Below, piece by piece: positions 3,694 through 57,408 of a stretch of 64,000 nucleotides of DNA. The stretch covers positions 18,592-82,591 of the IMG/VR virus record IMGVR_UViG_3300036832_000548. One strand, given 5' to 3'. The notes below the pieces were generated by a model that saw nothing but the letters and a program-made list of their open reading frames with translations, was not told the DNA's origin and did no database searches. Within the stretch, counting starts at the first letter, position 1. Each line of letters begins with the position of its first letter. The position numbers and the translations under genes are program-made. This DNA is from a virus.

Positions 3694-5877
3694 ATGCCTG
3701 ACCAGACAGTCGAGATCAAACTAGTATTGCGGGACGAGCTGTCCAAGCAGCTTGCCCCTATTGTTGCGCAGGTCAGGCAGCTCAATCAGGCGATCGATAC
3801 TACCCGCCCGCAACAGCACATGGAGCGGTTCGGCGGGGCCGTCCAGGGCGTTCGCCGCGAACTCTCCGCACTATCGCAGATCACTTTCGGCGGGTTGATC
3901 GGCGGCGGCATTGTCGCTGGCTTAATGGCCACGGCAAAGGCGCTGGGCGACATGGCCAACCGTGGCCTCCAGCTCCGCTACAGTGCCGACGCGCTGGGCG
4001 TCACCACCGGGATGCTCAATCAATTTTCCGACGCCATGATGGGGCTCGGGAAATCGCGTGAGGCAGGTCAAGCAAGCATCGAGGCAGCAACCAAGTCGCT
4101 GCGCGAGCTACAGATCGAAGGAGGACAGTCAAAGCTTTTCACTGAACTCGAGCGCGCCGGCGGCGAAACCGGCCAACGCCTCGCGCAAGAACTGGCGAAG
4201 GAGATCGCTGGACCGCGCGGCCTGCAGGGCGGTCTTGAGTATGCGATGCGCCGCATGGCGGGGATGCGACAGGAGTCAGCCGCCAAGTTCGCAGAAATTC
4301 TGGGGCTGGGGCCGGGGTTCGGTCGGGAGGCCGCGCGGGATTATCTGCAAGTCCTCGGGCAGCTCCCCAAGCGACTCGAACTTTCGCATCAGCAGCAGCT
4401 CGAGCTGGCAAAGGCCAATGCGAGCCTCGGCATCTCTTGGGACAATATCAAGACTACGCTGGCCGGATCGCTGCTCCCGATCTTCGCGCAGCTCACTCAC
4501 ACGCTCGATCAGTTCCTGCAATCCAAGGCCGGTCAGGAATTCACCAAGCAGCTCGAATCATGGGGCCGCGAGATGAATGCCGCGCTCAAGGAGTGGCTTG
4601 AGGGCGGCGGCTTAACGCGACTGACCGAAACGCTCGGGACAGCGGTTGGCACGTTGAGGCAGGGATTTGAGGCCGCTGACAAAGTGGTCACGGCCATGGG
4701 AACGGATTGGGGGCACGTCCTAGGTGCGCTTGGGATCGCGGTGTTCGCCTCACAGTTGGCGGGCATTGCTTCTAGCCTCCGATTGATTGGAGGCATTCCC
4801 GGCATCGCCTTGATACTTGGTAGCCTCGCGCTCATCACAAAGCCAAAGATCGAGGACATCAAAGACCCGGCAAAACGTGCGCAAGCGGAAAAGGACGTAG
4901 CGGGCGGCGCAGCACAACCCGGCGACCCGTGGGCACTTTGGAATATTCTCAAGGATCTGTTGAAAGGCAACATCGATTGGAAATCGATGTTGCGCGAAGA
5001 TCCGCTCCTTCCCTTTCCGGGCAGTGGGCAATCCAAGACTCCATCAGAGAAGCGCGCCGACGACGCAGCAAAAAAGAACGCGCAACAGCGCATCACCGAA
5101 GAGTTCAGAGATCTCGATTACGAACTCCAGAAGCTCAATCAATACCTCGCGCCGGGTGGACCAGAAGGCAGCGCAGGATCAAGCGGTTTCCAACTGCCTC
5201 CGTATCAGCAAAAAGATTTCACGTTCTATTATCCCGGTGCCAGCGGTGCGAAGGGAATGGAAGGACCGTTTGAAACCGCGCGAGCGGGATTGGACAAGCA
5301 ATTCACTCCTAAAACACTTGATGATTTTCGGTTGGGGCTCACGCCCGCTGTTACGGTTGCTGGACCTGCGAGCAAATTGGGACAGTCGATCAACTTAGGC
5401 GATATCGAATATCGCAGCCCGATTGATGGCAAAGTCTATCAGGTCCCTAATGTGCCGGGTTATGTGCATGATCGCGGCGGGGCATTCACAGAAGATAAAC
5501 CAAACAAACGCGACATCGCCGTTGGCGATTTTCGTGGCCTCAATCCTGTCACCGGCTTGCCATTCAATGACGCTACCGCAGAAGCGTTCAGCCGCGGGAA
5601 CAAGCAATTTGCCGCCGGCACATTTCCAACAGCGTCAGGCTACGATGAAGCGGGCTTTACCGGCGAAGGCGTTGTCGGCACCGATCCGATCACGTCGCAT
5701 CTCGCCACGCGCGATTCTCAATCCGTCAATGGCACCGCTACCGTCGACATAGACGTTGGCGGCATGACGCAAGCGATGCGAAATCCGAATGACCTGTTCA
5801 AGCCGCAACCACTCGGCGGTTCAGTGCAAATGCAAAACGTGACGCGCCCAGACAACAATCCTATGAGTTTCCAGTAA
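3694..5877 (+). CDS. Tape-measure-like protein 1 with C-terminal 3D/DPBB-like lytic domain
   Basis: Helical Ala/Gly/Leu-rich N-terminal part after the chaperone; FTFYYP..VTVAG..VHDRGGAF..RDIAV motifs. Confidence 0.7.
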   Translation: MPDQTVEIKLVLRDELSKQLAPIVAQVRQLNQAIDTTRPQQHMERFGGAVQGVRRELSALSQITFGGLIGGGIVAGLMATAKALGDMANRGLQLRYSADALGVTTGMLNQFSDAMMGLGKSREAGQASIEAATKSLRELQIEGGQSKLFTELERAGGETGQRLAQELAKEIAGPRGLQGGLEYAMRRMAGMRQESAAKFAEILGLGPGFGREAARDYLQVLGQLPKRLELSHQQQLELAKANASLGISWDNIKTTLAGSLLPIFAQLTHTLDQFLQSKAGQEFTKQLESWGREMNAALKEWLEGGGLTRLTETLGTAVGTLRQGFEAADKVVTAMGTDWGHVLGALGIAVFASQLAGIASSLRLIGGIPGIALILGSLALITKPKIEDIKDPAKRAQAEKDVAGGAAQPGDPWALWNILKDLLKGNIDWKSMLREDPLLPFPGSGQSKTPSEKRADDAAKKNAQQRITEEFRDLDYELQKLNQYLAPGGPEGSAGSSGFQLPPYQQKDFTFYYPGASGAKGMEGPFETARAGLDKQFTPKTLDDFRLGLTPAVTVAGPASKLGQSINLGDIEYRSPIDGKVYQVPNVPGYVHDRGGAFTEDKPNKRDIAVGDFRGLNPVTGLPFNDATAEAFSRGNKQFAAGTFPTASGYDEAGFTGEGVVGTDPITSHLATRDSQSVNGTATVDIDVGGMTQAMRNPNDLFKPQPLGGSVQMQNVTRPDNNPMSFQ

Positions 5878-8775
5878 ATGGTAGCTCGCAAACCACAAAC
5901 CATCGAGGTCGTCGTTCGCGACGAGGTGACGCGCGCTCTTGAGCGTGCGCGCTCGCATATGCGCCAAGTCGGTGGCGGCAAGGAAACACTGGGCGGCATA
6001 ACGGGCGCGATCAAGGGACTCGAGGGTGGCATCGAGTCAGTCGCACGCGGCATCAGCCGCGAGTTTGGCACGCTGGCCCGCATGGCGGGCGGCAGCTTGC
6101 TGGGTGCTGGTTTTGTCGCTGGCCTCAACAGGACGGCGCAGGCGCTGGGCAATGTGGCGCGGGCCGCAACGCAGCAGCACTATCTCGCTGAACAAATCGG
6201 GCTGACGACGCAGCAGCTCGCAAATCTCACGGCTCGCGGTCGCGCGTTCGGCTTGGGTGTTGAGCAGACCACGGCTGGCATTTCGAGTCTCTCCAAAAAT
6301 CTGCGCGATCTGAAGATGCTCGGTCAGAACGCGCCCATTTATAAGTCACTCACGGAAGCGGGCGGCGGTAGTGGTCAGCGGTTTGGCGACAAGCTCATAG
6401 CAGCGGTCAGGGGACCTGGCGGCTACGACGCTGGCGTCCATACGTTTATCAAACTGATGTCGGAGACGAACGCTCAGGCGCAGAGCAAGCTCTCTGATAT
6501 GTTTAATCTAGGTTCGATTGCGTTCCGCGATCTCGATTCTCTTGGTCTGGGCGATCTTCCAAAGCCGATTGTATTGTCTGATTCGGCAGCGCGCGATCTC
6601 ACGCGCTCGACGGCGCTTGCAGATCAGTCGTGGACAAATATCAAAAACACTGTCGGCGGCGCGTTGATGCCGGCGGTCGAACAGTTGGCGCGAACGCTTG
6701 ACGCATTCCTGCAAGGACCTGGCGCAGGAATGCTCAAACAGTTTACAGACTGGGTTTCCAAGATCAACATCCCATGGGGAGCAATCGGCACCGCGCTGGC
6801 GAGTGCAGCCGGAATATTAAGCATGGCCTTCATCTGGGTGAAGAAGGCAATCGTGGAGGTCACTCCGATAGTCGATAAAATCGGCGGCTGGGGACCGCTT
6901 CTGCTCACGGCGGGTGCCGTGATCCAATACGGCAACGTCAACAAGGTCACGCTGAGCTTGTATGTCATCGGCGGTGCGTTGACCGTCATTGGCGAGCACG
7001 ACTGGGTACTCAAAGCACTCGCTGACGCCAGCAGATTGGCAATGGGGACGGGCAAACTGTCATCGCAGTTTGGATCGCCCTATTCGAGGAACATCGAGGA
7101 CCGTCGCGGGCAGCCGTCCATACAGATGCCGCCGAATGCCAAGGCCATGCGCGGCGGCTACAACCTCATGAGCAGCACCACTGGCTCGAGCGACGACGAT
7201 GACGATATCACCAATGCGTTGAGTAATCAGCTGCAAAGCACCAGCGCGCAAGTCATGCAGCTGGCCAATATCGTGGCAACGCAGGGACTGACTCCCGATC
7301 AGCTCGGCGGCGGGACTGCAGGAGGAGGACAGATCCGCATTCCCAGCGCTGGTGGCGGCGGTGGCGGGTACACGCCGCGCCCGCGAGCTGCACCGCCGCC
7401 TTCGACACCACGGACAACAACGCCACCGTCGACGCCACCGTCGACGCCGCCAGCACCGCCTCCATCGACGCCGCCAGTAACACCACCAACGCCATCTTCA
7501 ACACCGTCGAGGCCATCCTCGACAACGCCTCCAGGGCCGACACCGGGACCAACACAGCCGCCGCCCGGAGGTACTAATAAGGGCGTGTTGCTGTTCGCGC
7601 ACGGCCTTACCGGACGCTATGCGGGGATGCACGGCAGCATCGCGCAAGTCGAAGCAGACGTTAAGCGATACGCGGCAGCGCACGGCTATAGCAGCGTTGA
7701 GTTCATTTACGGCTCGCCCGCCGAACAAGAACGGCAAATGCTGGATCGGGTTAAGCGCGGAGGCGTCGGCGGCCTTTTGGGCTTTTCGGCTGGCGCTGGT
7801 CCTGCGCGACGGGTCAGCAATGCGACCGGTGTGCCGGCGGTTACGACCGGAGCACCAAGAGTTCCAGGCGACGTGAGCCCCGCGAAACGTCACATGGACC
7901 AAATCCGCGTGCTGGCGGAACAGGAAGAAAGGAAACGACTACAACAAAATCCGACCGCGCAGCCACAAGTGCCAACCGCGAACCCGCAACAGCCGACCAC
8001 CGGGCGGTCGGGATTGGTTTCGCCGGTCACCGGATCATTCGGTGAGAATTCGTCCAACCCATACGGCGCTGCTCGCAAGGGTGGGCGACCGCACTCCGGC
8101 GTCGATTGGCGCGCGGAGAATGGGACGCCAGCGGTTGCGATGATTGGCGGTGTCGTTACGCACGTCGGCTACGATAGAGGCGGTTACGACAACTATGCGG
8201 TGGTGAAGGGTGACGACGGCGTCTATCGTCGATATGCCTATCACGGGCGATCGCTTGTCCACAAAGGACAGCGGGTCGAGCAAAAGCAACCGCTTGGCAT
8301 CATTGATCGGCGCCATCTGCATTACGAAGAAATCCACCCGAAATTGGCGAATGGCAAACCGAATCCGGTGTATGCGGAATTTGAGCGGAATGGCAACGCC
8401 AGCACCAGCTATCAACGCGGCACGTCCGATCCGTCGCAGACGCTCAATATGCCATATCGGACCAGGGTCACCGCAGGCGAACCGCTTGGCGGCCAACCTG
8501 CAACGGCACAGCCTGCGCAAACGTCGCCAATCGTCTATTCGAACGAGGACGAGATCGAGCGGCTCAAATATAAAAAAGAATTGGACGAACAATATCCGCA
8601 GGGCGGCTATACGCCGATTCCAAAAGGTCGCATCAGCGGCCTTGTCAATCTCCAGATCAATGTGCGCGGGCCGCGCGGCGTGAAAGTATCTGGCGAAGGT
8701 GCCGGGGTCGTAGGGCCTGCGAGCATCGACCGATCCGATCCCAGCGGCGGCATCGAAGGCTTCTCACCGGCATAA
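5878..8775 (+). CDS. Tape-measure-like protein 2 with alpha/beta-hydrolase-like and M23 peptidase domains
   Basis: N-terminus paralogous to neighbours; Pro/Thr linker; LFAHGL and GFSAG; HSGVD and HLHY M23 motifs. Confidence 0.75.
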   Translation: MVARKPQTIEVVVRDEVTRALERARSHMRQVGGGKETLGGITGAIKGLEGGIESVARGISREFGTLARMAGGSLLGAGFVAGLNRTAQALGNVARAATQQHYLAEQIGLTTQQLANLTARGRAFGLGVEQTTAGISSLSKNLRDLKMLGQNAPIYKSLTEAGGGSGQRFGDKLIAAVRGPGGYDAGVHTFIKLMSETNAQAQSKLSDMFNLGSIAFRDLDSLGLGDLPKPIVLSDSAARDLTRSTALADQSWTNIKNTVGGALMPAVEQLARTLDAFLQGPGAGMLKQFTDWVSKINIPWGAIGTALASAAGILSMAFIWVKKAIVEVTPIVDKIGGWGPLLLTAGAVIQYGNVNKVTLSLYVIGGALTVIGEHDWVLKALADASRLAMGTGKLSSQFGSPYSRNIEDRRGQPSIQMPPNAKAMRGGYNLMSSTTGSSDDDDDITNALSNQLQSTSAQVMQLANIVATQGLTPDQLGGGTAGGGQIRIPSAGGGGGGYTPRPRAAPPPSTPRTTTPPSTPPSTPPAPPPSTPPVTPPTPSSTPSRPSSTTPPGPTPGPTQPPPGGTNKGVLLFAHGLTGRYAGMHGSIAQVEADVKRYAAAHGYSSVEFIYGSPAEQERQMLDRVKRGGVGGLLGFSAGAGPARRVSNATGVPAVTTGAPRVPGDVSPAKRHMDQIRVLAEQEERKRLQQNPTAQPQVPTANPQQPTTGRSGLVSPVTGSFGENSSNPYGAARKGGRPHSGVDWRAENGTPAVAMIGGVVTHVGYDRGGYDNYAVVKGDDGVYRRYAYHGRSLVHKGQRVEQKQPLGIIDRRHLHYEEIHPKLANGKPNPVYAEFERNGNASTSYQRGTSDPSQTLNMPYRTRVTAGEPLGGQPATAQPAQTSPIVYSNEDEIERLKYKKELDEQYPQGGYTPIPKGRISGLVNLQINVRGPRGVKVSGEGAGVVGPASIDRSDPSGGIEGFSPA

Positions 8776-43494: not shown

Positions 43495-43598
43495 CGTCTC
43501 GGCCAAGGCGCTCTTGATACCCATGTCCCGGATGCCGAGACGGGCCGCCATCGGCCACAAGGGGAATGATGCCCACCTGCTTGATGCCGGTGGCGGCC
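43495..43598 (+). ncRNA. Orphan TIGR-like guide doublet (2 dual-spacer stem-loop units)
   Basis: CGTCTCGGC-CA-N9-TGATACCCA-N9-T-GCCGAGACG then GGCCGCCATCGGC-CA-N9-TGATGCCCA-N9-T-GCCGGTGGCGGCC. Confidence 0.8.
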
Positions 43599-43942: not shown

Positions 43943-45136
43943 ATGGATAAGATCGATACCAAGGGCGCCCGCGAGAAGCTCCCCGCACGCGGGCGCGCAT
44001 ACTTCCTAAACACTGTCGCCAGTGGCATCACGCTGGGCTATCGCCGCCTGCCGGCTGGCCCTGGCTCCTGGCTCATTCGTAAGGCCGACGGCAAGGGCGG
44101 GGCCGTCCTCGTCACCTTCGCCAAGGCGGACGACCTGGTGCCAGCCGACGGCAAAACCATCCTCGACTTTGATCAAGCCCTCTTGCGAGCCCGCGAGGTT
44201 GCGGTCGACCTCATGAGCGACGTTGGCCCGCTGTCTATCGACAGGGCACTCACCGACTTTGCCAACGATCTGGCTGGCCGCGATTCGAACCCCGATAATG
44301 CCCGCCGCGTTCGCAAGCATTTGTCCTCGACTATGCTTGCCAAGCCCGTGGGCGCGCTCACCGCGCGCGAGCTTAAGCGATGGCGTGACGATCTCCTGAA
44401 GAAGATGACGCGGCCGACGGCCGTACGAACAATCAAGATGTTCCGCGCCGCGCTTAATCTCGCTGCCGATCTCGATAGCAAAATCACCAACCGCAATGAC
44501 TGGCGGATCGGCCTTAAGACGCGAGACGACTATCGGCCGGTTGATCGGGTACTTGAGGATGATCAGGTGCTACAGCTGATCGACGCGGCCTATGCGTTCG
44601 ACTATCAGTACGGCTTGCTGCTTGAGGTGTTGGCGTTCACCGGAACGCGCACCAAGCAGGCGACGCGCCTGATGGTCAGCGATCTTGATATCGCTGACAA
44701 GGACAAGCCGCGCCTGATGATGCCCGTGAGCCGCAAAGGCAAGTATCGCAAGACCGAGGTCAATCGGTCGATCCCGATTCCTGTCGATCTCGCTGGCAGG
44801 CTGCGTGCAGCTGCTGGCACTCGGCCGCGCAATACAGCGTTACTAGTCGACGGCAAGGGCAACCCGTGGAAACCGGCCGGCAACGAGATACGCAGGATGT
44901 GGAAGCGCGTCGCCGAGCAAGGCGGAATCAAAGAAACCATGTACGCCCTGCGGCACTCGTTCATCACGCGCAGTCTTAAGGCTGGCATTCCGCCAAGCGT
45001 GCTGGCGAACAGCGTCGACACATCGGTGGCAATGATCGAGAAAACCTATGGGCGCTTCGTCGCCAATCATGCGGACGACATCATGCGTCGTGCCCTGCTG
45101 CCATCAAGCAAGAGGATCCTTCGGATTGTGCCGTAG
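43943..45136 (+). CDS. int: Tyrosine recombinase/integrase
   Basis: Arm-binding N-terminus; TGTR, YALRHS, EKTYG catalytic motifs. Confidence 0.9.
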   Translation: MDKIDTKGAREKLPARGRAYFLNTVASGITLGYRRLPAGPGSWLIRKADGKGGAVLVTFAKADDLVPADGKTILDFDQALLRAREVAVDLMSDVGPLSIDRALTDFANDLAGRDSNPDNARRVRKHLSSTMLAKPVGALTARELKRWRDDLLKKMTRPTAVRTIKMFRAALNLAADLDSKITNRNDWRIGLKTRDDYRPVDRVLEDDQVLQLIDAAYAFDYQYGLLLEVLAFTGTRTKQATRLMVSDLDIADKDKPRLMMPVSRKGKYRKTEVNRSIPIPVDLAGRLRAAAGTRPRNTALLVDGKGNPWKPAGNEIRRMWKRVAEQGGIKETMYALRHSFITRSLKAGIPPSVLANSVDTSVAMIEKTYGRFVANHADDIMRRALLPSSKRILRIVP

Positions 45137-49222: not shown

Positions 49223-50344
49223 TTAGGAACGCCCATCGGTTCCCTCAGGATGCGCTTGCTGCTCGTCCCAGCCTGCGCGCCACTCAAGGGCTTCGCGCGC
49301 CCGTGTTGGATCTCGATACTCGATCGGGGTTGCTTTGCGCTGCATGCCCTTGGCTTGGTCAGCGCGACCGCGTTCGCGCGCAATCACCAGCAAATCTGGG
49401 GCGGTCGCCTGTTGGGGTTCTACTTTCGTTTCGGATTTTGCAGCCGTTTGCTGCGGTTCCTGATTCGTTTCCGTGTTCGAATCATCGGAGTGCTGCTCGC
49501 TTGGCGGCGATTCCGGTTCTGTCAAGTGGTCGACGATGGTTCGGTCAGCGTGGGCTTGGTCGTGCGCTTCCTGCACGGTGTCTGCTGGTGGACCGGCGAA
49601 ATGATCGAGCGTCGCGCCGCGGGCGGTCTCACTGCGAGCGCGGGACTGGGCGGTCGTCTCGCCCTCTTCATCTTCGTACATCTCCTCATCTTTGCGGATC
49701 AGATCATCGAGGTCAGACGACATGGGCAGAAGCCGCGACAGGACCCGGATCGCGGTCTTCATCTCCATTTCTTCCGTCCACATTTTCCAAGGCGCGTCCT
49801 CGCGCGAGGCGCGGCTCATGTTGCGGCGCTTGGCAATCTCACTAGGCGATAGTGGCGCGATAAAAACCCCGCCGTCCTTGGTCCCGGCTGCGGCGTAGAC
49901 AAGACGCTTCTTCTTGTCGGTGTGATCGTCGCCCGGAATATGTTTGAAATGCGGGCCGTTCTCGTCAGTCCAGTGTTCCCAATGGTCGCCATCGTAAACG
50001 ATATCCGTCGTCACCCATTTAAATTGCCCGCTATTGCGGAATTTTTTGAGCAGGCCTTGGTACATCGGCAGGTATTGGACCTTGTTCTTAAATGGCACCA
50101 ACGCGGCCTCGCGACCGTCAGGCAGCAAACCGTCCTGGGCACAACGCAGTGCGGAGTTGAACAGCGAGCCGCGGTCACAGGTGAGCAGGTCGTTATTGAG
50201 CTGCACGGCGGTCAGCACAACGCGGAAGAACCGTTCGGCTGGCATGTGCTTCGGGAGCGCATGTTGAAATTGCACACTGCGATCGTTGAGTTGATCGCGC
50301 AGGACCACCATCGGGTGCGCGGGTTTGTTGGCTTGATCGTTCAT
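49223..50344 (-). CDS. recT: RecT-family single-strand annealing protein
   Basis: ALPKHM..ERF.RV..SL..CAQDGLLPDGREAALVPF..MYQGLLK..PW...EEM..KT.IR.L. Confidence 0.92.
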   Translation of the reverse strand: MNDQANKPAHPMVVLRDQLNDRSVQFQHALPKHMPAERFFRVVLTAVQLNNDLLTCDRGSLFNSALRCAQDGLLPDGREAALVPFKNKVQYLPMYQGLLKKFRNSGQFKWVTTDIVYDGDHWEHWTDENGPHFKHIPGDDHTDKKKRLVYAAAGTKDGGVFIAPLSPSEIAKRRNMSRASREDAPWKMWTEEMEMKTAIRVLSRLLPMSSDLDDLIRKDEEMYEDEEGETTAQSRARSETARGATLDHFAGPPADTVQEAHDQAHADRTIVDHLTEPESPPSEQHSDDSNTETNQEPQQTAAKSETKVEPQQATAPDLLVIARERGRADQAKGMQRKATPIEYRDPTRAREALEWRAGWDEQQAHPEGTDGRS

Positions 50345-50368
50345 TCGTTTTTCTCCTTTTGATTAGGT

Positions 50369-51038
50369 GCCGCCGAGGGCAGTCGAGCGTCGGGCATCAA
50401 GGCCTCGCAGGCCCTCGGCGGCGATCTCGGCACCGATTTCCTGGGCATCATAGGACGTTTGGCCGAGATTTCTTTTTGGTGCCGCCGAGGGCAACTTGAA
50501 CTTGGGCATCATGGGTGACATGGCCCTCGGCGGCTTGCTCGGCGTGCAGTTTTTGGGAACCCACTAATTTCTGGCCAAGCAATTTCTTGGAGTTGGTGCC
50601 GCCGCGGGCAACCCGAAGGGGGGGATCATTCGGGGCATGGCCCGCAGCGGCGGTCTCGGCAGGGGATGCATGGGCATCACGAAGTTCGTGGCCGAGATTT
50701 TTGCGCTTGCGTTTTTTGGGGCCGCCGACGGCGCTTGCGATTTGGGGATCAACCGAGCAATGGCCATCGGCAGCGACCTCGGCACCCATGCCATGGGCAT
50801 CAAGAACTACATGGCCGAGATCATTGGTGCCGCCGAGGGCAGAGGAATCCTGGGCATCATGCGCTGCTTGGCCATCGGCGGCGATCTCGGCAAAGCGTCG
50901 CTGGGCATCATGGATCCGTTGGCCGAGACCATTCGAATAGATGCCGCCGGCATGGCTCCTCTGGGCATCAGCCGCATGCTGGCCGACGGCGATCTCGGCA
51001 GCGCCATTTTGGGCATCATTGCTCATGTGGCCGAGATC
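50369..51038 (-). ncRNA. TIGR-like stem-loop array A (6 doublets, 12 dual-spacer units)
   Basis: Repeated GATCTCGGC-CA-N9-TGATGCCCA-N9-T-GCCGAGATC / GCCGCCGAGGGC-CA-N9-TGATGCCCA-N9-T-GCCCTCGGCGGC with unique spacers. Confidence 0.88.
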
Positions 51039-51974
51039 ATTCGTGGCTTGATCGACCCACTGTTCCCACAGGTCCACCAAGAATTGTTTGAAGGCGATCC
51101 GCAATCCGTCCTGGCGGCGATGACCGGGCGTCCATTCGGGATGCGATATCTCAGTGCGTATTCGGCGCGCGGCATAGACCTCGCCATAGCGTCCGTTGGG
51201 ATGACCTTCATCGGCCCCGGCCTTCGCTGCCGATATCCACTGCTTGTTCACGAGCCACAAGGCGATCGTGTACATCGTGGCGTATCGCTCACCCGAAAAC
51301 GGATTCGCGATCCATTCCTCCTTATCCAACTTACGCGGCCGCCACGTTTCCCGTTTCCAAGTCGATCCGGCGTGGCCATCATACGGTGCAAAGCCGAGAC
51401 GCTTCCAAAGCTTCTCCGGGTTCGCGTAGTTATCGAGCGGGCCCGCCTCCGCAACGATCAGGGCAAGGCCGAGGATGCCCGCGCCGGGGATCGACTCAAC
51501 CCACGGTGCAACGGGCAACTGCGCCGCGAGTTCCTCTATTCCAGCCGTTGAGTCGTCTCGCACTTCATCCATTGGCCCACGCGCGATGTCAGTCTTCTGC
51601 ACAATCGTGAGCAGATCGTGGGGCAAGTCCGTTTGAACAATCTCGCCGCTGCCGTTGGCGGCCTTCTTGTACACCGCGCGCGCCTCCTTGATCATCGCGG
51701 CAACCTTCTTGTTGTATTCCGCGCGAATGGCTTCCGACTCAGTCGGCTTCCAATCTGTAAAGTTGCGCCGGATATAGGACTCAAGAGCGCGGTCGATCTT
51801 TTGTTGAACTTTGATCGCGAACTTGCGCCGTCGCGCCAGCGTCACGATGTTCTTCACCAGCTCGTCGCGAGCACGAATTTGCAGCACCAGCGAAGGCAAG
51901 CCAATGGCGGAATTGCGCGCATCAATCAAAGCTTGAGCGCGGCGAGTGCGGTCGGCATTTGTTTGCTGTGTCAT
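50448..51974 (-). CDS. tasA: IS110/Nop-domain RNA-binding protein without nuclease domain (TasA-like); C-terminal about 195 aa read through array A
   Basis: Coiled coil, then LPVAPWVESIPGAGILGLALIVAEAG..YANPEKLWKRLGFAP..YGEVY..GHRRQDGLRIAFKQFLVDLW; no N-terminal DEDD/RuvC; AAGGGA RBS. Confidence 0.8.
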   Translation of the reverse strand: MTQQTNADRTRRAQALIDARNSAIGLPSLVLQIRARDELVKNIVTLARRRKFAIKVQQKIDRALESYIRRNFTDWKPTESEAIRAEYNKKVAAMIKEARAVYKKAANGSGEIVQTDLPHDLLTIVQKTDIARGPMDEVRDDSTAGIEELAAQLPVAPWVESIPGAGILGLALIVAEAGPLDNYANPEKLWKRLGFAPYDGHAGSTWKRETWRPRKLDKEEWIANPFSGERYATMYTIALWLVNKQWISAAKAGADEGHPNGRYGEVYAARRIRTEISHPEWTPGHRRQDGLRIAFKQFLVDLWEQWVDQATNDLGHMSNDAQNGAAEIAVGQHAADAQRSHAGGIYSNGLGQRIHDAQRRFAEIAADGQAAHDAQDSSALGGTNDLGHVVLDAHGMGAEVAADGHCSVDPQIASAVGGPKKRKRKNLGHELRDAHASPAETAAAGHAPNDPPLRVARGGTNSKKLLGQKLVGSQKLHAEQAAEGHVTHDAQVQVALGGTKKKSRPNVL

Positions 51975-51998
51975 ATTGTGTGTCCCTTGTTGTTAGGT

Positions 51999-52100
51999 GC
52001 CGCCGAGGACATTCGACGTATGGGTATCACCCGAGCAACGGCCCTCGGCGGCGATCTCGGCGATCATACAATGGGCATCACTGGGGCTGTAGCCGAGATC
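51999..52100 (-). ncRNA. TIGR-like array B (1 doublet)
   Basis: Same repeat architecture, intergenic upstream of tas. Confidence 0.85.
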
Positions 52101-52102
52101 AT

Positions 52103-52795
52103 TTAGTGTCCTTCGATATACTTTTGCAGGCTCGCCACCGTCGCAACGACTGCGGTGTTCAACGCAGCCGGGGCTTGCTCGCGAGCTTCCCGATCAAACT
52201 GCTCGAGCACATTTGCTGGGACGATATCGCGGACCCGCGCATCCGTATTTGGCACGCGCGCGTAGCTGCGGATCTTGCACATGAGCAGCGTGTCGGCAGT
52301 CTCCTGCAGTGTGCTCAACACGGTCGAACCGACGACCGCAATGCGCTCCTCAATCGCGGCGTCCAGCTCCCGCCAGTGCAGGTCGCCAACCGGCGCGCCG
52401 TTGATCCTGCGGCGGTCATAGATGAGGCCAACGCTGCGCATCATCGCGGTTCGGTTGATCGCCTTGTCGCGGGCTGTGGGTGATTTGGTGCCGCCGCTGG
52501 CGTTTCTGCTTTGGGCATCAAGTCCACGCTGGCCAGCGGCAGCGGTCTTGGCACGCAGCGTGTGGGCATCAGCATGTACGCGGCCAAGATCATTCGAAAT
52601 GCGTTTGAGATAATCCAGCGCGAGCCCGCCGAGTAATTCCGGGCGGCGTTGAATTTTCTTGACGAAGCCGGTCAAGACTTTCGTCGGGTCGTTTTTGTTG
52701 TCATTCAACAAATTGACGGCAGCGACCCGCAGCTCGTTAGCGACGGTGTCGAGGCCGGCTTTCTTCAGAGCAGCTCCGATAGATGTGTCAGTCAT
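52103..52795 (-). CDS. Hypothetical helical protein containing an in-frame guide doublet
   Basis: GGAG RBS before ATG 52795; open across array C. Confidence 0.7.
   Translation of the reverse strand: MTDTSIGAALKKAGLDTVANELRVAAVNLLNDNKNDPTKVLTGFVKKIQRRPELLGGLALDYLKRISNDLGRVHADAHTLRAKTAAAGQRGLDAQSRNASGGTKSPTARDKAINRTAMMRSVGLIYDRRRINGAPVGDLHWRELDAAIEERIAVVGSTVLSTLQETADTLLMCKIRSYARVPNTDARVRDIVPANVLEQFDREAREQAPAALNTAVVATVASLQKYIEGH
52490..52591 (-). ncRNA. TIGR-like array C (1 intragenic doublet)
   Basis: Same architecture with compensatory stem changes. Confidence 0.8.
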
Positions 52796-52818
52796 TTTGT
52801 GTTCTCCGTTCAAAAGGT

Positions 52819-53033
52819 GCCGCTGAGGGCACCAGTCCCGTAGGCATCAACAAACAGATGGCCCGCAGCGGCGATCTCGGCAAAACTTGGTTGGGCATCA
52901 TGGATGCGATAGCCGAGATCATTTGTGTGGGTGCCGCCGAGGGCATTGCGTCGTTGGGCATCAGGCGTTCCTGGGCCCCCGGCGGCGGTCTCGGCACCGA
53001 TCCTCTGGGCATCAACGCGCGGATGGCCGAGAT
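52819..53033 (-). ncRNA. TIGR-like array D (2 doublets)
   Basis: Same repeat architecture. Confidence 0.87.
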
Positions 53034-53038
53034 TTGTG

Positions 53039-53734
53039 TCATATCGTTACCCTGAAGATTTCGCTGAATGGCGGGCGGTGCGCCGCGTCAGATAGCTCGT
53101 TGCTGACGACTAGCACGCGATATCGAAAGCCGCGGCTTTGATTGATTACGCTGGTTCGCGCGAGATAGTTTTTCTGGAGCTGTTGCAGCCAAAAACTGGC
53201 GTGTTGCAGTTCCCCGTAAATCTTCTGCCGTCGGGCTGCATGATTGATCCGACGAAGAACGGACCCCTCATTGAACACAACGATGAAATCGCTGGCTGCA
53301 ACGTCGCGCGCCACGATCCGCATCGCGCCAACGCCATGCCCGGTGTAGCCGCAGGGATCTGATAGCCATAGGACGTAATCGTACCCACCGGCGCGTACGA
53401 CATCGACGACATCGGAATGCGTCTCGGCAATGAGGGCACTCGGAAACCGTTTGCGCAGCAAAAGCCGTTGCCTCCGACTCGCATCGCACAGGCAAACGTC
53501 CGCGCTCACGGCGAAGGCGATGTTGGTGACAATCTGCGGCGTTGGCGTCGACACAACGCCGTCATGCAAAACGCCGATACCATCACCAGCATTGGCATCG
53601 ATCAAAAGAAGTTTGTCGTGCAGATGAGCGGTCCTGACTTGCGCTTCAACGATCTTGCTCAACAACGAGTGTTTGATCCACGACCCCTCGCTGCGGCCCG
53701 CATTAGCGCGTTCGTTGGTCGAGGCGTGGGTCAT
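53039..53734 (-). CDS. SAM-dependent methyltransferase-fold protein (TcmP/GMT-like)
   Basis: SWIKHSLL..LIDANAGDG..LSDPCG, similar to the KH/IDxxAGxG/DPxG motifs of TcmP-like proteins. Confidence 0.55.
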   Translation of the reverse strand: MTHASTNERANAGRSEGSWIKHSLLSKIVEAQVRTAHLHDKLLLIDANAGDGIGVLHDGVVSTPTPQIVTNIAFAVSADVCLCDASRRQRLLLRKRFPSALIAETHSDVVDVVRAGGYDYVLWLSDPCGYTGHGVGAMRIVARDVAASDFIVVFNEGSVLRRINHAARRQKIYGELQHASFWLQQLQKNYLARTSVINQSRGFRYRVLVVSNELSDAAHRPPFSEIFRVTI

Positions 53735-53743
53735 CGTGTAGGT

Positions 53744-54406
53744 GCCGCCGCAGGCAGAGGCCGAGTGGGCATCATCGTCGTTGTGGCCCGCGGCGGCGAT
53801 CTCGGCGTTCCGCGTTTGGGCATCAAGCGATCGTTGGCCGAGAATTGTTGAAAGGCTGCCGCCGAGGGCATGACGATTTTGGGCATCAACGAACGACTGG
53901 CCATCGGCGGCGATCTCGGCAAGCGCCTTCTGGGCATCATCTGGCCTGTGGCCGAGATCATTCGAATGGGGGCCGCCGAGGGCAAGCACAGGATGGGCAT
54001 CACGGGTCGCGTGGCCCCCGACGGCGATCTCGGCACCCGAGTCATGGGCATCAAGTGGTCATGGGCCGAGATTATAGGTGCCGCCGAGGGCAACGATCCA
54101 TTGGGCATCACGCTGGCAACGGCCCTCGGCGGCGATCTCGGCATTCCATCATTGGACAGCAAGTCGTCGTTGGCCGAGAAGATTTTAGGTGCCGCCGAGG
54201 GCGCACCTCCCATGGGCATCAAGGACGGCGTGGCCCGCGGCGGCGATCTCGGCAACGGGTGGCTGGGCATCAGCCGTCTACTGGCCGAGATCATTCTGAT
54301 AGATGCCGCCGAGGGCATGAGCTGCTTGGGCATCAGCCAGCTTCTGGTCCTCGACGGCGATCTCGGCAGAGCTCGTATGGGCATCACTGGTGGATTGGCC
54401 GAGATC
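53744..54406 (-). ncRNA. TIGR-like array E (6 doublets, 12 units)
   Basis: Same repeat architecture; starts at the stop codon of the YqaJ gene. Confidence 0.9.
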
Positions 54407-55325
54407 ATTTGGTTGCTTCTTTACGTTCGTGAATTCGGAGAACGCGGACCTCGCGTGGGAGGACCGTATAGCCGGAAAAATTCGAGGTTTTGTAGGTGAC
54501 TTTCCATCCGTTAACGCCGGAGACTTGGGCCGCGTCACCCAATTTGTATTTTATCTGAGCCTCGATCTCGTCTTTGCGTTGGTCGAGCGAAGCGATCCGT
54601 TGCATCAGGGCGGCGCGTTCCGCGAGGATTTCCGGCAGCTCGTTGTCGCCAGACATGTCGACCATCTTATCGGTGGCTTCGCGTGGACTGATCAACTTGA
54701 TCAGCTCAGCATCCTTGCCGAAATCGGGCGCCGGCTCGTGACCGATCCGCATTAGCTCCCAAAAATTCTGGGCGGCTGTCTTGATCCGCTCCTCGGCACC
54801 GGCGTGGCGTGGCAATTCCCTGATGCAGACATCGAGATCATAGTTGTAAACCACGGCGGCCACCCCGAAGGCGGCGTCGGCCAGCAGCATCTCGGTGAGC
54901 AGCTGCAGCTCGATCCACAATGGGGTGATATTTCCGTTGTCCCAATCGCGCTCAAAGATGTGCGGATAGGCGGTTTTAGTTTGCAGGATGCCGAGGCCGC
55001 GCGGATCGCCGTGGATAAAGAAATCTGGCGTAGCGCCCAACTGCAGCTCAGGGGCACGGAAATATGTCTGGCATTTCTCAATGATCCAATCGTCGTGTTC
55101 CTCTCCGACACGCTGGGCAACGACGTTTTCGAGCAGGCGCCCGCGGCGGATCGGTTTCGTTTCCTCGAATTCGAACTCCATCCCATTGTGCTGATAGTAA
55201 AGCTTGAGCGCGGTGACATACGGGTGCAGGCCGAACAGCGCCGCCACCACGGAGGCGGTGATGTCCGGCTTGCGCAGCTCCAGCCACTGCGGGCGACTCA
55301 GGATTGGGATGCGTTCGACGATCAT
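54405..55325 (-). CDS. YqaJ/lambda-exonuclease family protein
   Basis: WLELRKPDITAS..RGRLLE..GATPDF..LQTKT..QL. Confidence 0.9.
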   Translation of the reverse strand: MIVERIPILSRPQWLELRKPDITASVVAALFGLHPYVTALKLYYQHNGMEFEFEETKPIRRGRLLENVVAQRVGEEHDDWIIEKCQTYFRAPELQLGATPDFFIHGDPRGLGILQTKTAYPHIFERDWDNGNITPLWIELQLLTEMLLADAAFGVAAVVYNYDLDVCIRELPRHAGAEERIKTAAQNFWELMRIGHEPAPDFGKDAELIKLISPREATDKMVDMSGDNELPEILAERAALMQRIASLDQRKDEIEAQIKYKLGDAAQVSGVNGWKVTYKTSNFSGYTVLPREVRVLRIHERKEATK

Positions 55326-55493: not shown

Positions 55494-55763
55494 ATGGCAA
55501 AAGAGAGACTTGACGCAGCCATTCTGGCGCTGCGGGAAGAGAATTGGCTACCTAGAATCGCGCAGCGACTCAATTTGACCCGGCAGGCGACCTCGAAATG
55601 GCGCCGCGTTCCGGCAGATCGTGTGCGCGAGGTCGCCAAGATCACGGATTATCCCCTGGCATTTTTACGTCCTGATCTTTACGAGGACATGCCATCCAAG
55701 CCGCCCAAGCTGGCGAAGCCGAAAGCTCGCCGCCGCAATCATCGTGCTGTTGCGCATGCTTGA
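55494..55763 (+). CDS. Cro/YdaS-like HTH regulator
   Basis: IAQRLNLTRQATSKWRRVPADRV..LRPDLY. Confidence 0.85.
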   Translation: MAKERLDAAILALREENWLPRIAQRLNLTRQATSKWRRVPADRVREVAKITDYPLAFLRPDLYEDMPSKPPKLAKPKARRRNHRAVAHA

Positions 55764-56359
55764 GGGGTATTATGGGCCAGCCATTCGACGGTCTTCCGCG
55801 CGCCCATTTCCGCGCAATCCTGGCTGACCCGCCGTGGAACTTTGAGACCTATAGCGAGGCTGGTCGCGATCGTTCTCCCAATTATCCGCTGATGACGGCG
55901 CAGGGCTTGCGCGATCTGCCGGTCAAAGACCTCGCGGCGCCTGATTGCGTGCTGTTCATGTGGGTTACATGGCCAATGCTCGAGCAATCGCTGGCGCTGA
56001 TTCGCGCGTGGGGGTTCACCTACAAGACGTGCGGGTTTGACTGGATGAAGGCGCACGCGGGCCAGATCGATATGTTCCGCGACGACGCGGATGGCCAGGT
56101 TGGGCTTGGCTACTGGACGCGCAGCAACAGCGAGCCGTGCCTGTTGGCAACGCGCGGCAAGCCCAGACGGGTCAACGCTGATGTCCGCATGGGCATCATC
56201 GAGCCGCGGCGCGAGCACAGCCGCAAGCCTTATTGCATCTATGACCGCATCGAGCGGCTCGTCCAAGGACCATATATTGAATTATTTGCTCGCTGGCAGC
56301 GTCCGGGCTGGACCGCTTGGGGCAATGAGACTGACCGATTCAAGGAGGCTGCGGAGTGA
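55760..56359 (+). CDS. MT-A70 family adenine methyltransferase
   Basis: ILADPPW; LFMWVT; AWGFTYKT; GLGYWTRSNSEPCL; REHSRKP; IELFAR. Confidence 0.92.
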   Translation: MRGIMGQPFDGLPRAHFRAILADPPWNFETYSEAGRDRSPNYPLMTAQGLRDLPVKDLAAPDCVLFMWVTWPMLEQSLALIRAWGFTYKTCGFDWMKAHAGQIDMFRDDADGQVGLGYWTRSNSEPCLLATRGKPRRVNADVRMGIIEPRREHSRKPYCIYDRIERLVQGPYIELFARWQRPGWTAWGNETDRFKEAAE

Positions 56360-56995
56360 ATGTCCTCGATTTATTCAGCGGGATCGGCGGCTTCTCACTC
56401 GGACTCGAACGGGCCGGAATGCGAACTACCGCTTTTTGCGAGTCTGATGCGTTCTGCCGGCGCGTCCTCGCCAAGCACTGGCCCGACATCCTCTGCTACG
56501 ACGATGTCACAACTCTCACTGCCGCTCGACTTAGCGCCGATGGCATTGACAGCATTGATCTCATCTGCGGCGGATTTCCCTGCCAAGACATCTCCGTTGC
56601 CGGCAAAGGCGCAGGACTTGCTGGCGAGCGATCGGGCCTATGGCTCGAGTTCGCGCGAATTGTTGGCGAGCTACGACCCCGTTACGTCATCGTGGAGAAC
56701 GTCGCAGCTCTGCTTGGACGGGGACTATCAACAATTCTCGGAGACCTGGCCGCGCTCGGGTTTGATGCGGAATGTGGGTCGAGTGGTTGATGGGCCTGCC
56801 GCTCGAGTGGACCGTCGTAAGCGGCTCATCGCGCTTGGAAACGGACTCGTCCCGCAAATCCCGGAAATCATTGGACGCGCCATAATGGATGCTGAGCGCC
56901 CATACGACTTGCACGATGACATCAACAAGTCGCTGAAGGTTTGTTACGACGAGATCAAGGCGCGGCAGGCTGCGGGCGGTCCCGGCTGGCCATGA
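56356..56995 (+). pseudogene. C5-cytosine methyltransferase split over two frames with an apparent internal deletion
   Basis: Motifs I (DLFSGIGG), IV (GFPCQD) and VI (ENV) in 56356-56790; motif X (LGNGLVPQI) in the +1 frame; motif VIII and TRD absent. Confidence 0.7.
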
Positions 56996-57408
56996 GCGCG
57001 CTGCAACAAAAAGATCTTTTCACTAAACGCTGGCGGCATGTTCGCGAGCTGGACCCGTATGAAGATCAGATACAGGAAGCCCTGGTTGCGCAATTGCAAT
57101 GGGGCAAGCTGCGCGCCGGCGTGGTGTTCTTTCATGTTCCCAATGGCGGCAAGCGCGATAAGCGCACTGCTGCCAAGCTGAAACGTATGGGAGTGTTGCC
57201 GGGTGTCGCTGATCTAATATTTCTGTGGGCAACCGGCATGATCCCGCGCGTGTTATTTCTTGAGCTGAAGGCCAAGGGCGAAGGTTTATCGAAGGAACAG
57301 AGACTGTTCCGCGACAATGTGAAGACGGTGCGGTGCTACTTTGAGTGCGCTGACAACATCGATGACGCGCTGACGATTCTGGATAGATACAAGTTGCTGC
57401 GTGGTTGA
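56992..57408 (+). CDS. VRR-NUC domain nuclease
   Basis: EDQIQ..FHVPNGG..GVLPGVADL..LELK..LSKEQ. Confidence 0.88.
   Translation: MSALQQKDLFTKRWRHVRELDPYEDQIQEALVAQLQWGKLRAGVVFFHVPNGGKRDKRTAAKLKRMGVLPGVADLIFLWATGMIPRVLFLELKAKGEGLSKEQRLFRDNVKTVRCYFECADNIDDALTILDRYKLLRG

Follow-up and report, generated by a model that had tools for sequence, protein, structure and literature searches.

A stem-loop TIGR-TasA system (tandem interspaced guide RNA with a TIGR-associated, or Tas, protein) very probably forms part of the early operon on the minus strand of a complete soil phage of 82.6 kb. The DNA analysed, referred to here as the window, is a stretch of 64,000 nt corresponding to bases 18592-82591 of the 82,591-nt IMG/VR virus record IMGVR_UViG_3300036832_000548 (CheckV completeness, 100%). 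The locus is flanked on the minus strand by a YqaJ-type exonuclease gene and a RecT gene, and is composed of blocks of paired guide units placed around and within a short series of genes, one of which, tasA, encodes a predicted solo Nop-domain protein. An earlier inspection of the letters and open reading frames (the sequence-only reading) had assigned the locus to TIGR-Tas with a nuclease-free TasA and had set it apart from CRISPR. Both assignments were upheld: the first by the best sequence matches among solved structures (TasR and TasH), the family model NF052498, the box C/D motifs, the 9-nt spacers and loop and the covariation of the stems; the second by the lack of a Cas1 match in the whole phage (E ≤ 1) and by units that are hairpins with two 9-nt spacers.

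Guide units of the locus

The minus strand from 50368 to 54406 contains 32 units of the form stem-CCA-N9-TGATGCCCA-N9-TG-stem, arranged as 16 pairs in five blocks. Scanning with the 14 fixed positions of CCA-N9-TGATGCCCA-N9-TG recovered 31 units with at most 2 mismatches (minus strand, 50380-54398); the 32nd, at 50543-50574, is degenerate by motif yet retains an 8-bp stem. These counts agree with the doublets, units, blocks and unit layout described by the sequence-only reading, and the four spacer pairs that it quoted were exact. Its figure of about 34 guides also held, because it included a 17th pair located on the plus strand, which folds like the others. All 68 spacers of the window are mutually distinct, as had been noted in essence, with the two closest pairs 1 nt apart.

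The unit pattern is far beyond chance. With no more than 1 mismatch the motif was found 25 times on the minus strand and twice on the plus strand of the whole 82,591-nt record, while the same motif read backwards gave 0 and 0 respectively. The remaining hits of the motif scan were rejected as units: three were offset artefacts inside the arrays and 12 were scattered sites (six on each strand; 11 with 3 mismatches and one with 2) with flanking stems of 0-2 bp.

Two spacers within the 8-12-nt range, bounded by box C and box D (UG/CG), were present in the 31 units and in the degenerate one. The inter-spacer loop, TGATGCCCA, is 9 nt long, begins with UG, ends with CCA and has G-C pairing. In TaTasR the edge and loop repeats likewise begin with UG (box D) and end with CCA (box C), joined by a C-G pair (PMC12045711 section 8), and the program TIGRFinder searches for stem-flanked sets of two CCA/CGA/CTA/CAA-N9-TG/CG intervals (Xu, 2026, methods). 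The units fit the published definition, since box C (CCA), box D (UG), the 9-nt spacers and the 9-nt loop all match; the box variants found here (CCG, CCC, CTA, CCT and CG) overlap the TIGRFinder motif set. Searching Rfam gave two chance-level matches only, one of them to sR44 (E 0.55, opposite strand), and all box C/D families fell under threshold.

Covariation of the stems was assessed in 150 units collected by motif alone, comprising the 34 window units and a random draw of 116 from the 208 hits of 21 viral loci. The stems covary strongly. Flank cells were paired in 80.4% of cases, compared with 56.3% in shuffles (0/500 shuffles reached the observed value) and 34-44% with slid partners. The seven pairs nearest the boxes were paired in 91-99% of the 150 units, with 12-87 double-sided changes each, and changes on both sides were seen in 12 of the 14 stem pairs; C13-G44 and G26-C31 were invariant, the latter being present in 150/150 units. 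The flanks are, in other words, palindromic and stem-forming, and their sequence differs from locus to locus. Five pairs from the window were folded, two of them from block 1, and each formed a couple of abutting hairpins (z-scores, -2.4 to -5.2).

The TasA protein

By its sequence, TasA is predicted to be a nuclease-free RNA-binding protein of the Nop/IS110 type. The sequence-only reading had described an IS110 C-terminal/Nop-like domain without RuvC or HNH, and the profile searches bear this out. Pfam PF02371 was matched by the C-terminal region only (20.5 bits, cut-off 21.3), and the same family was matched by 30 of the 36 TasA family members. The NCBIfam model NF052498 (TIGR_Tas_endo, 'TIGR-Tas system RNA-guided endonuclease') gave E 1.8e-12 (47.7 bits, cut-off 100) over profile positions 44-214 of 215. 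TasA also matched the NCBIfam IS110 model NF033542 (E 7e-8) over positions 113-278 of 343, the non-catalytic part, and PHROG 4285, annotated as 'transposase' (E 1.3e-7). No RuvC, HNH or DEDD family was detected in Pfam (E ≤ 0.1) or NCBIfam (E ≤ 0.1), and only ~45 residues precede the conserved coiled-coil helix. The protein corresponds to the TasA subtype without HNH or RuvC in the sense that a match to either family is absent.

A comparison with Tas structures had also been suggested. A profile built from the 36 TasA family members was searched against 177,635 distinct PDB sequences; the best match was TaTasR (9mty, E 2.3e-4), followed by TasH (9w04 and related entries, E 0.018), and the next matches were designed helical repeats at E > 5. 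The alignments to TaTasR and TasH include the glycine-rich helix-hairpin region and a shared C-terminal H-x-x-x-A-x-R helix. The TasA family comprised 251 proteins at E ≤ 1e-3, all metagenomic and nearly all lacking a name, one of which is labelled as an IS110-family transposase. The best 120 homologues were all found at E ≤ 1.5e-79 and many are just 267-300 aa long. tasA is the sole Tas-like gene of the phage.

Association of units with tas in related loci

The arrays adjoin tas and run in its direction. Motif hits in 24 viral loci containing a tas homologue numbered 245 on the tas strand, of which 228 had at least 5 contiguous flanking pairs, against four on the opposite strand, one of which had a stem. 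The set was then widened to include two genome loci and 63 metagenome loci, and removal of redundancy left 63 loci in total. These carried 549 units on the tas strand and eight on the other, with at least two units in 52 of the 63.

The clade consists of soil-phage relatives. It had no match among 50,697 deposited phage genomes, and only two hits in a set of one genome each from 185,579 species: a 4.6-kb contig of a Xanthobacteraceae metagenome-assembled genome (MAG) and a partial match in a betaproteobacterial MAG. Single-protein searches of metagenome and viral contigs returned no close relatives, but alignment searches did find loci. Only one DNA sequencing run, a soil metagenome, contained the whole stretch, and this may be the record's own source; none of the runs listed is recorded as RNA.

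Guide units are arranged in abutting pairs

The guides come as abutting short-stem/long-stem pairs, and this arrangement is genuine and found throughout the clade. All 34 units of the window sit in pairs, including the three isolated occurrences, at a within-pair distance of 48-51 nt. Across 22 sources, 131 distances between successive units fell at 48-53 nt, with a further cluster at 54-66 nt. The stems of a pair abut (119 of 131 junctions at -3 to +2 nt), the first stem is shorter on average (8.0 bp, compared with 9.5 bp for the second) and the loop variants of the first and second units are unlike. The linkers between pairs are variable, from 1 to 69 nt and mostly 10-16 nt, and rich in A+T (56%, against 39.5% overall). 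In the 63 loci a partner at 46-53 nt was found for 413 of the 549 units. The sequence-only reading had called the locus an unusual variant; the paired arrangement justifies the term, but the interleaving with genes, which it had also cited, has already been published for stem-loop arrays, as has in-frame placement. Paired units were not found described in the parts of the published TIGR-Tas texts available, the supplementary tables and TIGRSafari being places that may cover them.

The between-pair linkers of block 5 are A-rich (e.g. AAAAACGCAAGCGCAAAAA) and, in the tas frame, translate into Lys-rich peptides. Linkers of the KSKKR type are common to the tails of the homologues P0002-P0009.

The regularity of the pairs raises the possibility, which we regard as the less probable one, that the working guide is the pair and not the single unit. 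Such a guide would be a ~110-nt RNA with two hairpins and four spacers, bound by two TasA dimers and directed to two 18-bp sites, either adjacent or distant and bridged, with the product of gene Y, the conserved neighbour of tasA, as a possible partner; this would be a variant of the stem-loop TIGR-TasA assignment and not its denial. The strict pairing in the window, the constant spacing and abutting junctions across sources, the differences in stem length and loop between first and second units, and the variable linkers all favour it, as does the folding of a pair, in which the two hairpins leave no single-stranded stretch for RNase cleavage. On the other side, the processed RNA of PlTasA is a single stem-loop (PMC12045711 section 9), 136 of the 549 units have no detected partner, and spacers A and B are related no more than by chance (complementarity 2.655, compared with 2.654 with partners shuffled). 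The pair may simply be the unit of duplication. Abutting hairpins have, moreover, been seen before, since arrays with overlapping stems are mentioned by Xu (2026) and counted there as having zero linker. The fuller proposal, that the heterotypic pair is a ~110-nt four-spacer guide whose stems stack end to end, holds two TasA dimers and acts with gene Y, is somewhat more doubtful again.

Are the repeats protein-coding?

The tas frame is free of stops for 198 codons into block 5, the guide pair embedded in gene Y is in frame, and the eight closest TasA homologues (P0002-P0009) have array-encoded extensions in the same frame, C-terminal in all eight and also N-terminal in P0002 and P0004. These observations would fit repeats that are protein-coding, with a variable repetitive TasA tail and an insert in gene Y in which the spacers are codons. 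We consider this very improbable. The open frames differ from block to block: in block 1 a different register is open (MISANPP...), as are both frames of the plus strand. The sequence-only reading had named protein-like evolution of the variable segments among the results that together would overturn it; stops contributed by spacers in the tas frame were not significantly depleted (P = 0.11, 2000 shuffles) and spacer positions had no periodic composition. In 22 of the 24 viral loci the tas ORF (open reading frame) stops 6-50 codons after the matched Nop region; in L022 and L023, which are near-identical, it runs on for 93 codons. In 13 of the 24 no unit lies inside the tas ORF. The double-sided compensatory changes in the stems preserve RNA pairing, and stem-loop units in frame within coding sequence are a published trait of these systems (Xu, 2026, bioRxiv 10.64898/2026.09.09.750476).

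The least probable explanation is a degenerate remnant of an IS110-family transposase lying among unrelated phage hairpins (terminators or repetitive extragenic palindromic (REP)-like elements), which draws on the matches of the protein to PF02371, NF033542 and the PHROG 4285 'transposase' but is opposed by the failure to detect an N-terminal DEDD/RuvC-like domain, the large conserved family of 251 proteins, the same-strand units beside tas in 52 of 63 loci, the box C/D signature present twice per unit and a minus strand without a terminator-like site between 49 and 57 kb.

Target searches and points against the assignment

Several results weigh against the stem-loop TIGR-TasA assignment, both in the protein and in the guides. 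Every hidden Markov model match of TasA lies under its curated cut-off. Sub-cut-off matches to NF052498 were also obtained in 7 of 14 control genomes, presumably on IS110 proteins, so this model alone does not separate Tas from IS110. The CUU processing motif reported for other stem-loop clades is not conserved at the stem bases of these units.

No target above control level was found for the guides in the material covered, namely the phage itself, relatives with tas and RecT-sibling phages. A search with joined spacers had been put forward by the sequence-only reading. For the phage's own 82.6-kb genome, spacer B was joined to the reverse complement of A, placed either before or after it and separated by 0-2 nt. 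This genome gave one site at 2 mismatches and 26 at 3, against 1.1 and 16.6 (maximum 27) for shuffled guides, and self-targeting was rejected. A search of 583 guides against 581 kb of tas-bearing relatives gave 0 perfect and 13 one-mismatch sites (controls, 5.3 shuffled and 9.6 with swapped partners), and the same guides against 66 non-redundant RecT loci gave 0 perfect and 20 one-mismatch sites (controls, 9.0 and 14.2). Smaller searches gave the same result: 349 guides against 376 kb of relatives yielded 0 perfect and one one-mismatch site (controls, 0.05 and 2.05), and the 34 window guides against 80 RecT-relative viral loci (1.2 Mb) yielded one one-mismatch and 26 two-mismatch sites, with 4-30 two-mismatch sites in five controls. 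These comparisons gave no signal of targeting of tas-bearing relatives or of RecT-sibling phages. Two individual matches were noted, both within chance. The window guide at 54122-54091 (minus strand) lies 1 mismatch from L054:1116, in the conserved EWI..PFSG region of another phage's tasA, and a guide of L049 matches the tas genes of L035 and L050.

Spacers are replaced in place

Within these arrays, spacers are exchanged in situ far faster than the flanking genes change. L014 and L018, with tas genes 96.3% identical, have two of 14-16 guides in common, and L010 and L018, with tas genes 89.4% identical, have none. When the three loci were aligned (positions 4650-7200 of each), stems, loops, linkers and genes were conserved, while individual 9-nt spacers were wholly different, identical or 1 nt apart, sometimes in A only or in B only; one insertion or deletion of a whole pair was also seen. 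Among 1105 distinct 9-mers, 50 recur across loci, nearly always between close relatives, and the loci do not draw on a common pool. In-place replacement between near-identical phages is not described in the portions of the published TIGR-Tas texts at hand.

Gene Y and gene X

Gene Y is a near-constant neighbour of tasA. A homologue was found in 33 of the 35 loci with at least 1200 nt upstream of tas; a recount with unit-free queries and self hits removed gave 32 of 35, with 27 directly upstream on the same strand. The family comprises 538 representatives at E ≤ 1e-3. Guide units are embedded in the variable central linker of gene Y both in the window and in P0122, L027, L028 and L030. No match to gene Y was found in Pfam, PHROG, NCBIfam or a PDB profile search, and its Atlas structure model is poor (pLDDT, the predicted local distance difference test, 0.46) with no structural neighbour at a template modelling (TM) score of 0.5. 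It is not detectably ParB, as PF02195 (ParB_N) had 0 matches in the phage at E ≤ 10 and in 0 of 12 family members at Pfam E ≤ 1.

Ten gene Y relatives, mostly the longer ones, were scanned against Pfam, and one contained a T5orf172/MUG113 domain. In this protein, the remote homologue P0159, the domain is N-terminal and fused to a region corresponding to gene Y profile positions 39-223. T5orf172/MUG113 belongs to the GIY-YIG nuclease superfamily. Because of this fusion there are hints that the C-terminal part of gene Y may be a module that can be joined to a nuclease. The excerpts of the published TIGR-Tas texts mention no gene Y, no guide pair in a non-tas gene and no RecT/Exo link, although supplements or TIGRSafari may cover these.

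Gene X had no match in Pfam, PHROG, NCBIfam or PDB and has three homologues besides itself. Of 33 related loci spanning at least 7 kb, one had gene X near tas, and it is no regular companion of tas. Its invariant motifs, DANAGDG and SDPCGY, resemble methyltransferase motifs, a likeness supported by no search.

Setting of the locus

The positions of the features, in the coordinates of the window, are given in Table 1. A promoter and terminator scan of 49-57 kb found 0 promoter-like sites, and the minus strand had no terminator-like site. Within the fetched flanks, YqaJ or RecT was found in 12 of the 33 tas loci of 7 kb or more, and tas was present in only 7 of 80 RecT-relative viral loci; the tie of tas to recombination genes is therefore recurrent but loose. 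Divergent from the locus, at 55760-57408 (plus strand), are ORFs whose translations, judged by eye only, resemble an adenine methyltransferase, a cytosine-5 methyltransferase and a VRR-NUC nuclease.

Table 1. Features of the stem-loop TIGR-TasA locus and its flanks.
Feature	Position	Strand	Remarks
YqaJ-type exonuclease gene	54405-55325	-	Pfam PF09588, E 3.5e-10; upstream flank of locus
TIGR block 1	53743-54406	-	6 guide pairs (12 stem-loop units); begins right behind exonuclease stop codon
Gene X, 231 aa	53039-53734	-	between blocks 1 and 2
TIGR block 2	52818-53034	-	2 guide pairs
Gene Y, 230 aa	52103-52795	-	conserved partner of tasA
TIGR block 3	52489-52591	-	1 guide pair, in frame within variable central linker of gene Y
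TIGR block 4	51998-52100	-	1 guide pair, gene Y / tasA interval
tasA, 310-aa predicted solo Nop-domain protein	51045-51974	-	open frame runs on to 50448 (508 aa)
TIGR block 5	50368-51038	-	6 guide pairs including degenerate unit 50543-50574; mostly within 3' extension of tasA frame
RecT recombinase gene	49223-50344	-	Pfam PF03837, E 2e-31; downstream flank of locus
Lone 17th guide pair	43495-43598 (motif span 43503-43586)	+	~7 kb from locus; ORF 43943-45136 next

Comparison with known systems

The stem-loop TIGR-TasA kind is already known and the locus adds no new kind. Stem-loop arrays with TasA, in which variable palindromes take the place of the edge repeats, were described by Faure (2025, PMC12045711 section 9), and the catalogue of Xu (2026) contains 2,559 of them. 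The locus resembles those of PlTasA (from a Peromyscus leucopus gut contig), BlTasA and MbTasA in its predicted solo-Nop protein without nuclease, its stem-loop arrays and its location in a phage; in the two 9-nt spacers between box C and box D, the 9-nt loop and the sequence-variable palindromic stems; and in having sub-arrays on both sides of tas and inside coding sequence with the frame intact. It differs from them, the proteins being compared by description, in its abutting short-stem/long-stem pairs, in arrays spread among five genes of a recombination operon with one pair 7 kb away on the other strand, in the pair placed inside a non-tas gene and in a gene Y that is nearly always beside tas.

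TaTasR (9mty) and SpTasH (9w04) have the same CCA/UG boxes, 9-nt spacers and a loop running from UG to CCA. Unlike TasR and TasH, the protein of this locus has no detected RuvC or HNH domain, and long stems replace the short edge repeats; the units are ~51 nt or more, compared with 36 nt for dual-repeat units. The Y/H processing loop of the dual-repeat TasR/TasH systems is reported to be absent from stem-loop clades. Box C is CCA here, while CUU is reported for PateTasR. In the TasA-tasParB operons (Faure, 2025, section 44) a conserved second gene likewise accompanies tasA, with units between the two, but gene Y has no ParB match and the published arrays are of the dual-repeat type.

More distant systems share parts of the design. 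IS110 bridge-RNA recombinases have a homologous RNA-binding domain (PF02371, NF033542), and their two-loop guide RNA resembles one unit pair in outline. They were rejected as an identity for the locus, where the N-terminal DEDD (RuvC-like) catalytic domain was not detected and dozens of guides are present in place of one. Archaeal box C/D small ribonucleoproteins (Nop5-fibrillarin-L7Ae) have a dual-guide RNA with box C/D and C'/D' and a Nop-domain dimer (PMC12045711), but the units here lack kink-turn boxes and published Tas targets are DNA. Neighbouring proteins gave no fibrillarin or L7Ae match in Pfam, PHROG or NCBIfam, no Rfam box C/D family reached threshold, and this candidate was also set aside. 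CRISPR-Cas, which has cas genes and single spacers between direct repeats of 25-36 nt, was rejected, as the units are two-spacer hairpins and Cas1 had no match in the phage at E ≤ 1.

Proposed mechanism and significance

The stretch from exo to recT would be transcribed with the early operon as one or a few long RNAs; co-transcription is suggested by the lack of promoter-like sites, and of terminator-like sites on the minus strand, in 49-57 kb, which is weak evidence. Host RNases may cut the A/U-rich 10-16-nt linkers between pairs. On the model of the TaTasR, SpTasH and PlTasA structures, a TasA dimer would grip each unit, one protomer holding the C-G pair of box C (CCA) and box D (UG) at the stem and the other holding the same pair in the UGAUGCCCA loop. 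The two spacers would then pair with opposite strands of an 18-bp DNA site. As no nuclease domain was detected in TasA, the ribonucleoprotein (RNP) would be expected to block transcription or replication rather than to cut, and the likely targets would be genes of the host or competing mobile elements. Repression of transcription has been reported for MbTasA, which also binds target DNA in electrophoretic mobility shift assays (Xu, 2026, section 4, bioRxiv 10.64898/2026.09.09.750476), and the stem-loop RNP of PlTasA has been solved by cryo-electron microscopy (Guan, 2026, bioRxiv 10.64898/2026.08.11.744272).

TIGR-Tas was published in 2025, and the papers themselves call the targets, spacer acquisition, guide maturation and partners of these systems open. 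The locus described here is a useful natural example, as it lies in a complete phage record and carries 34 guides, none of which convincingly matches its own genome. The replacement of single 9-nt spacers within conserved scaffolds bears on how the arrays renew their spacers. If the paired guide does read two 18-bp sites, it would have a specificity of 36 bp or would link two DNA sites much as an IS110 bridge RNA does. The strict pairing of the units and the constant presence of gene Y provide concrete hypotheses that can be tested by experiment.

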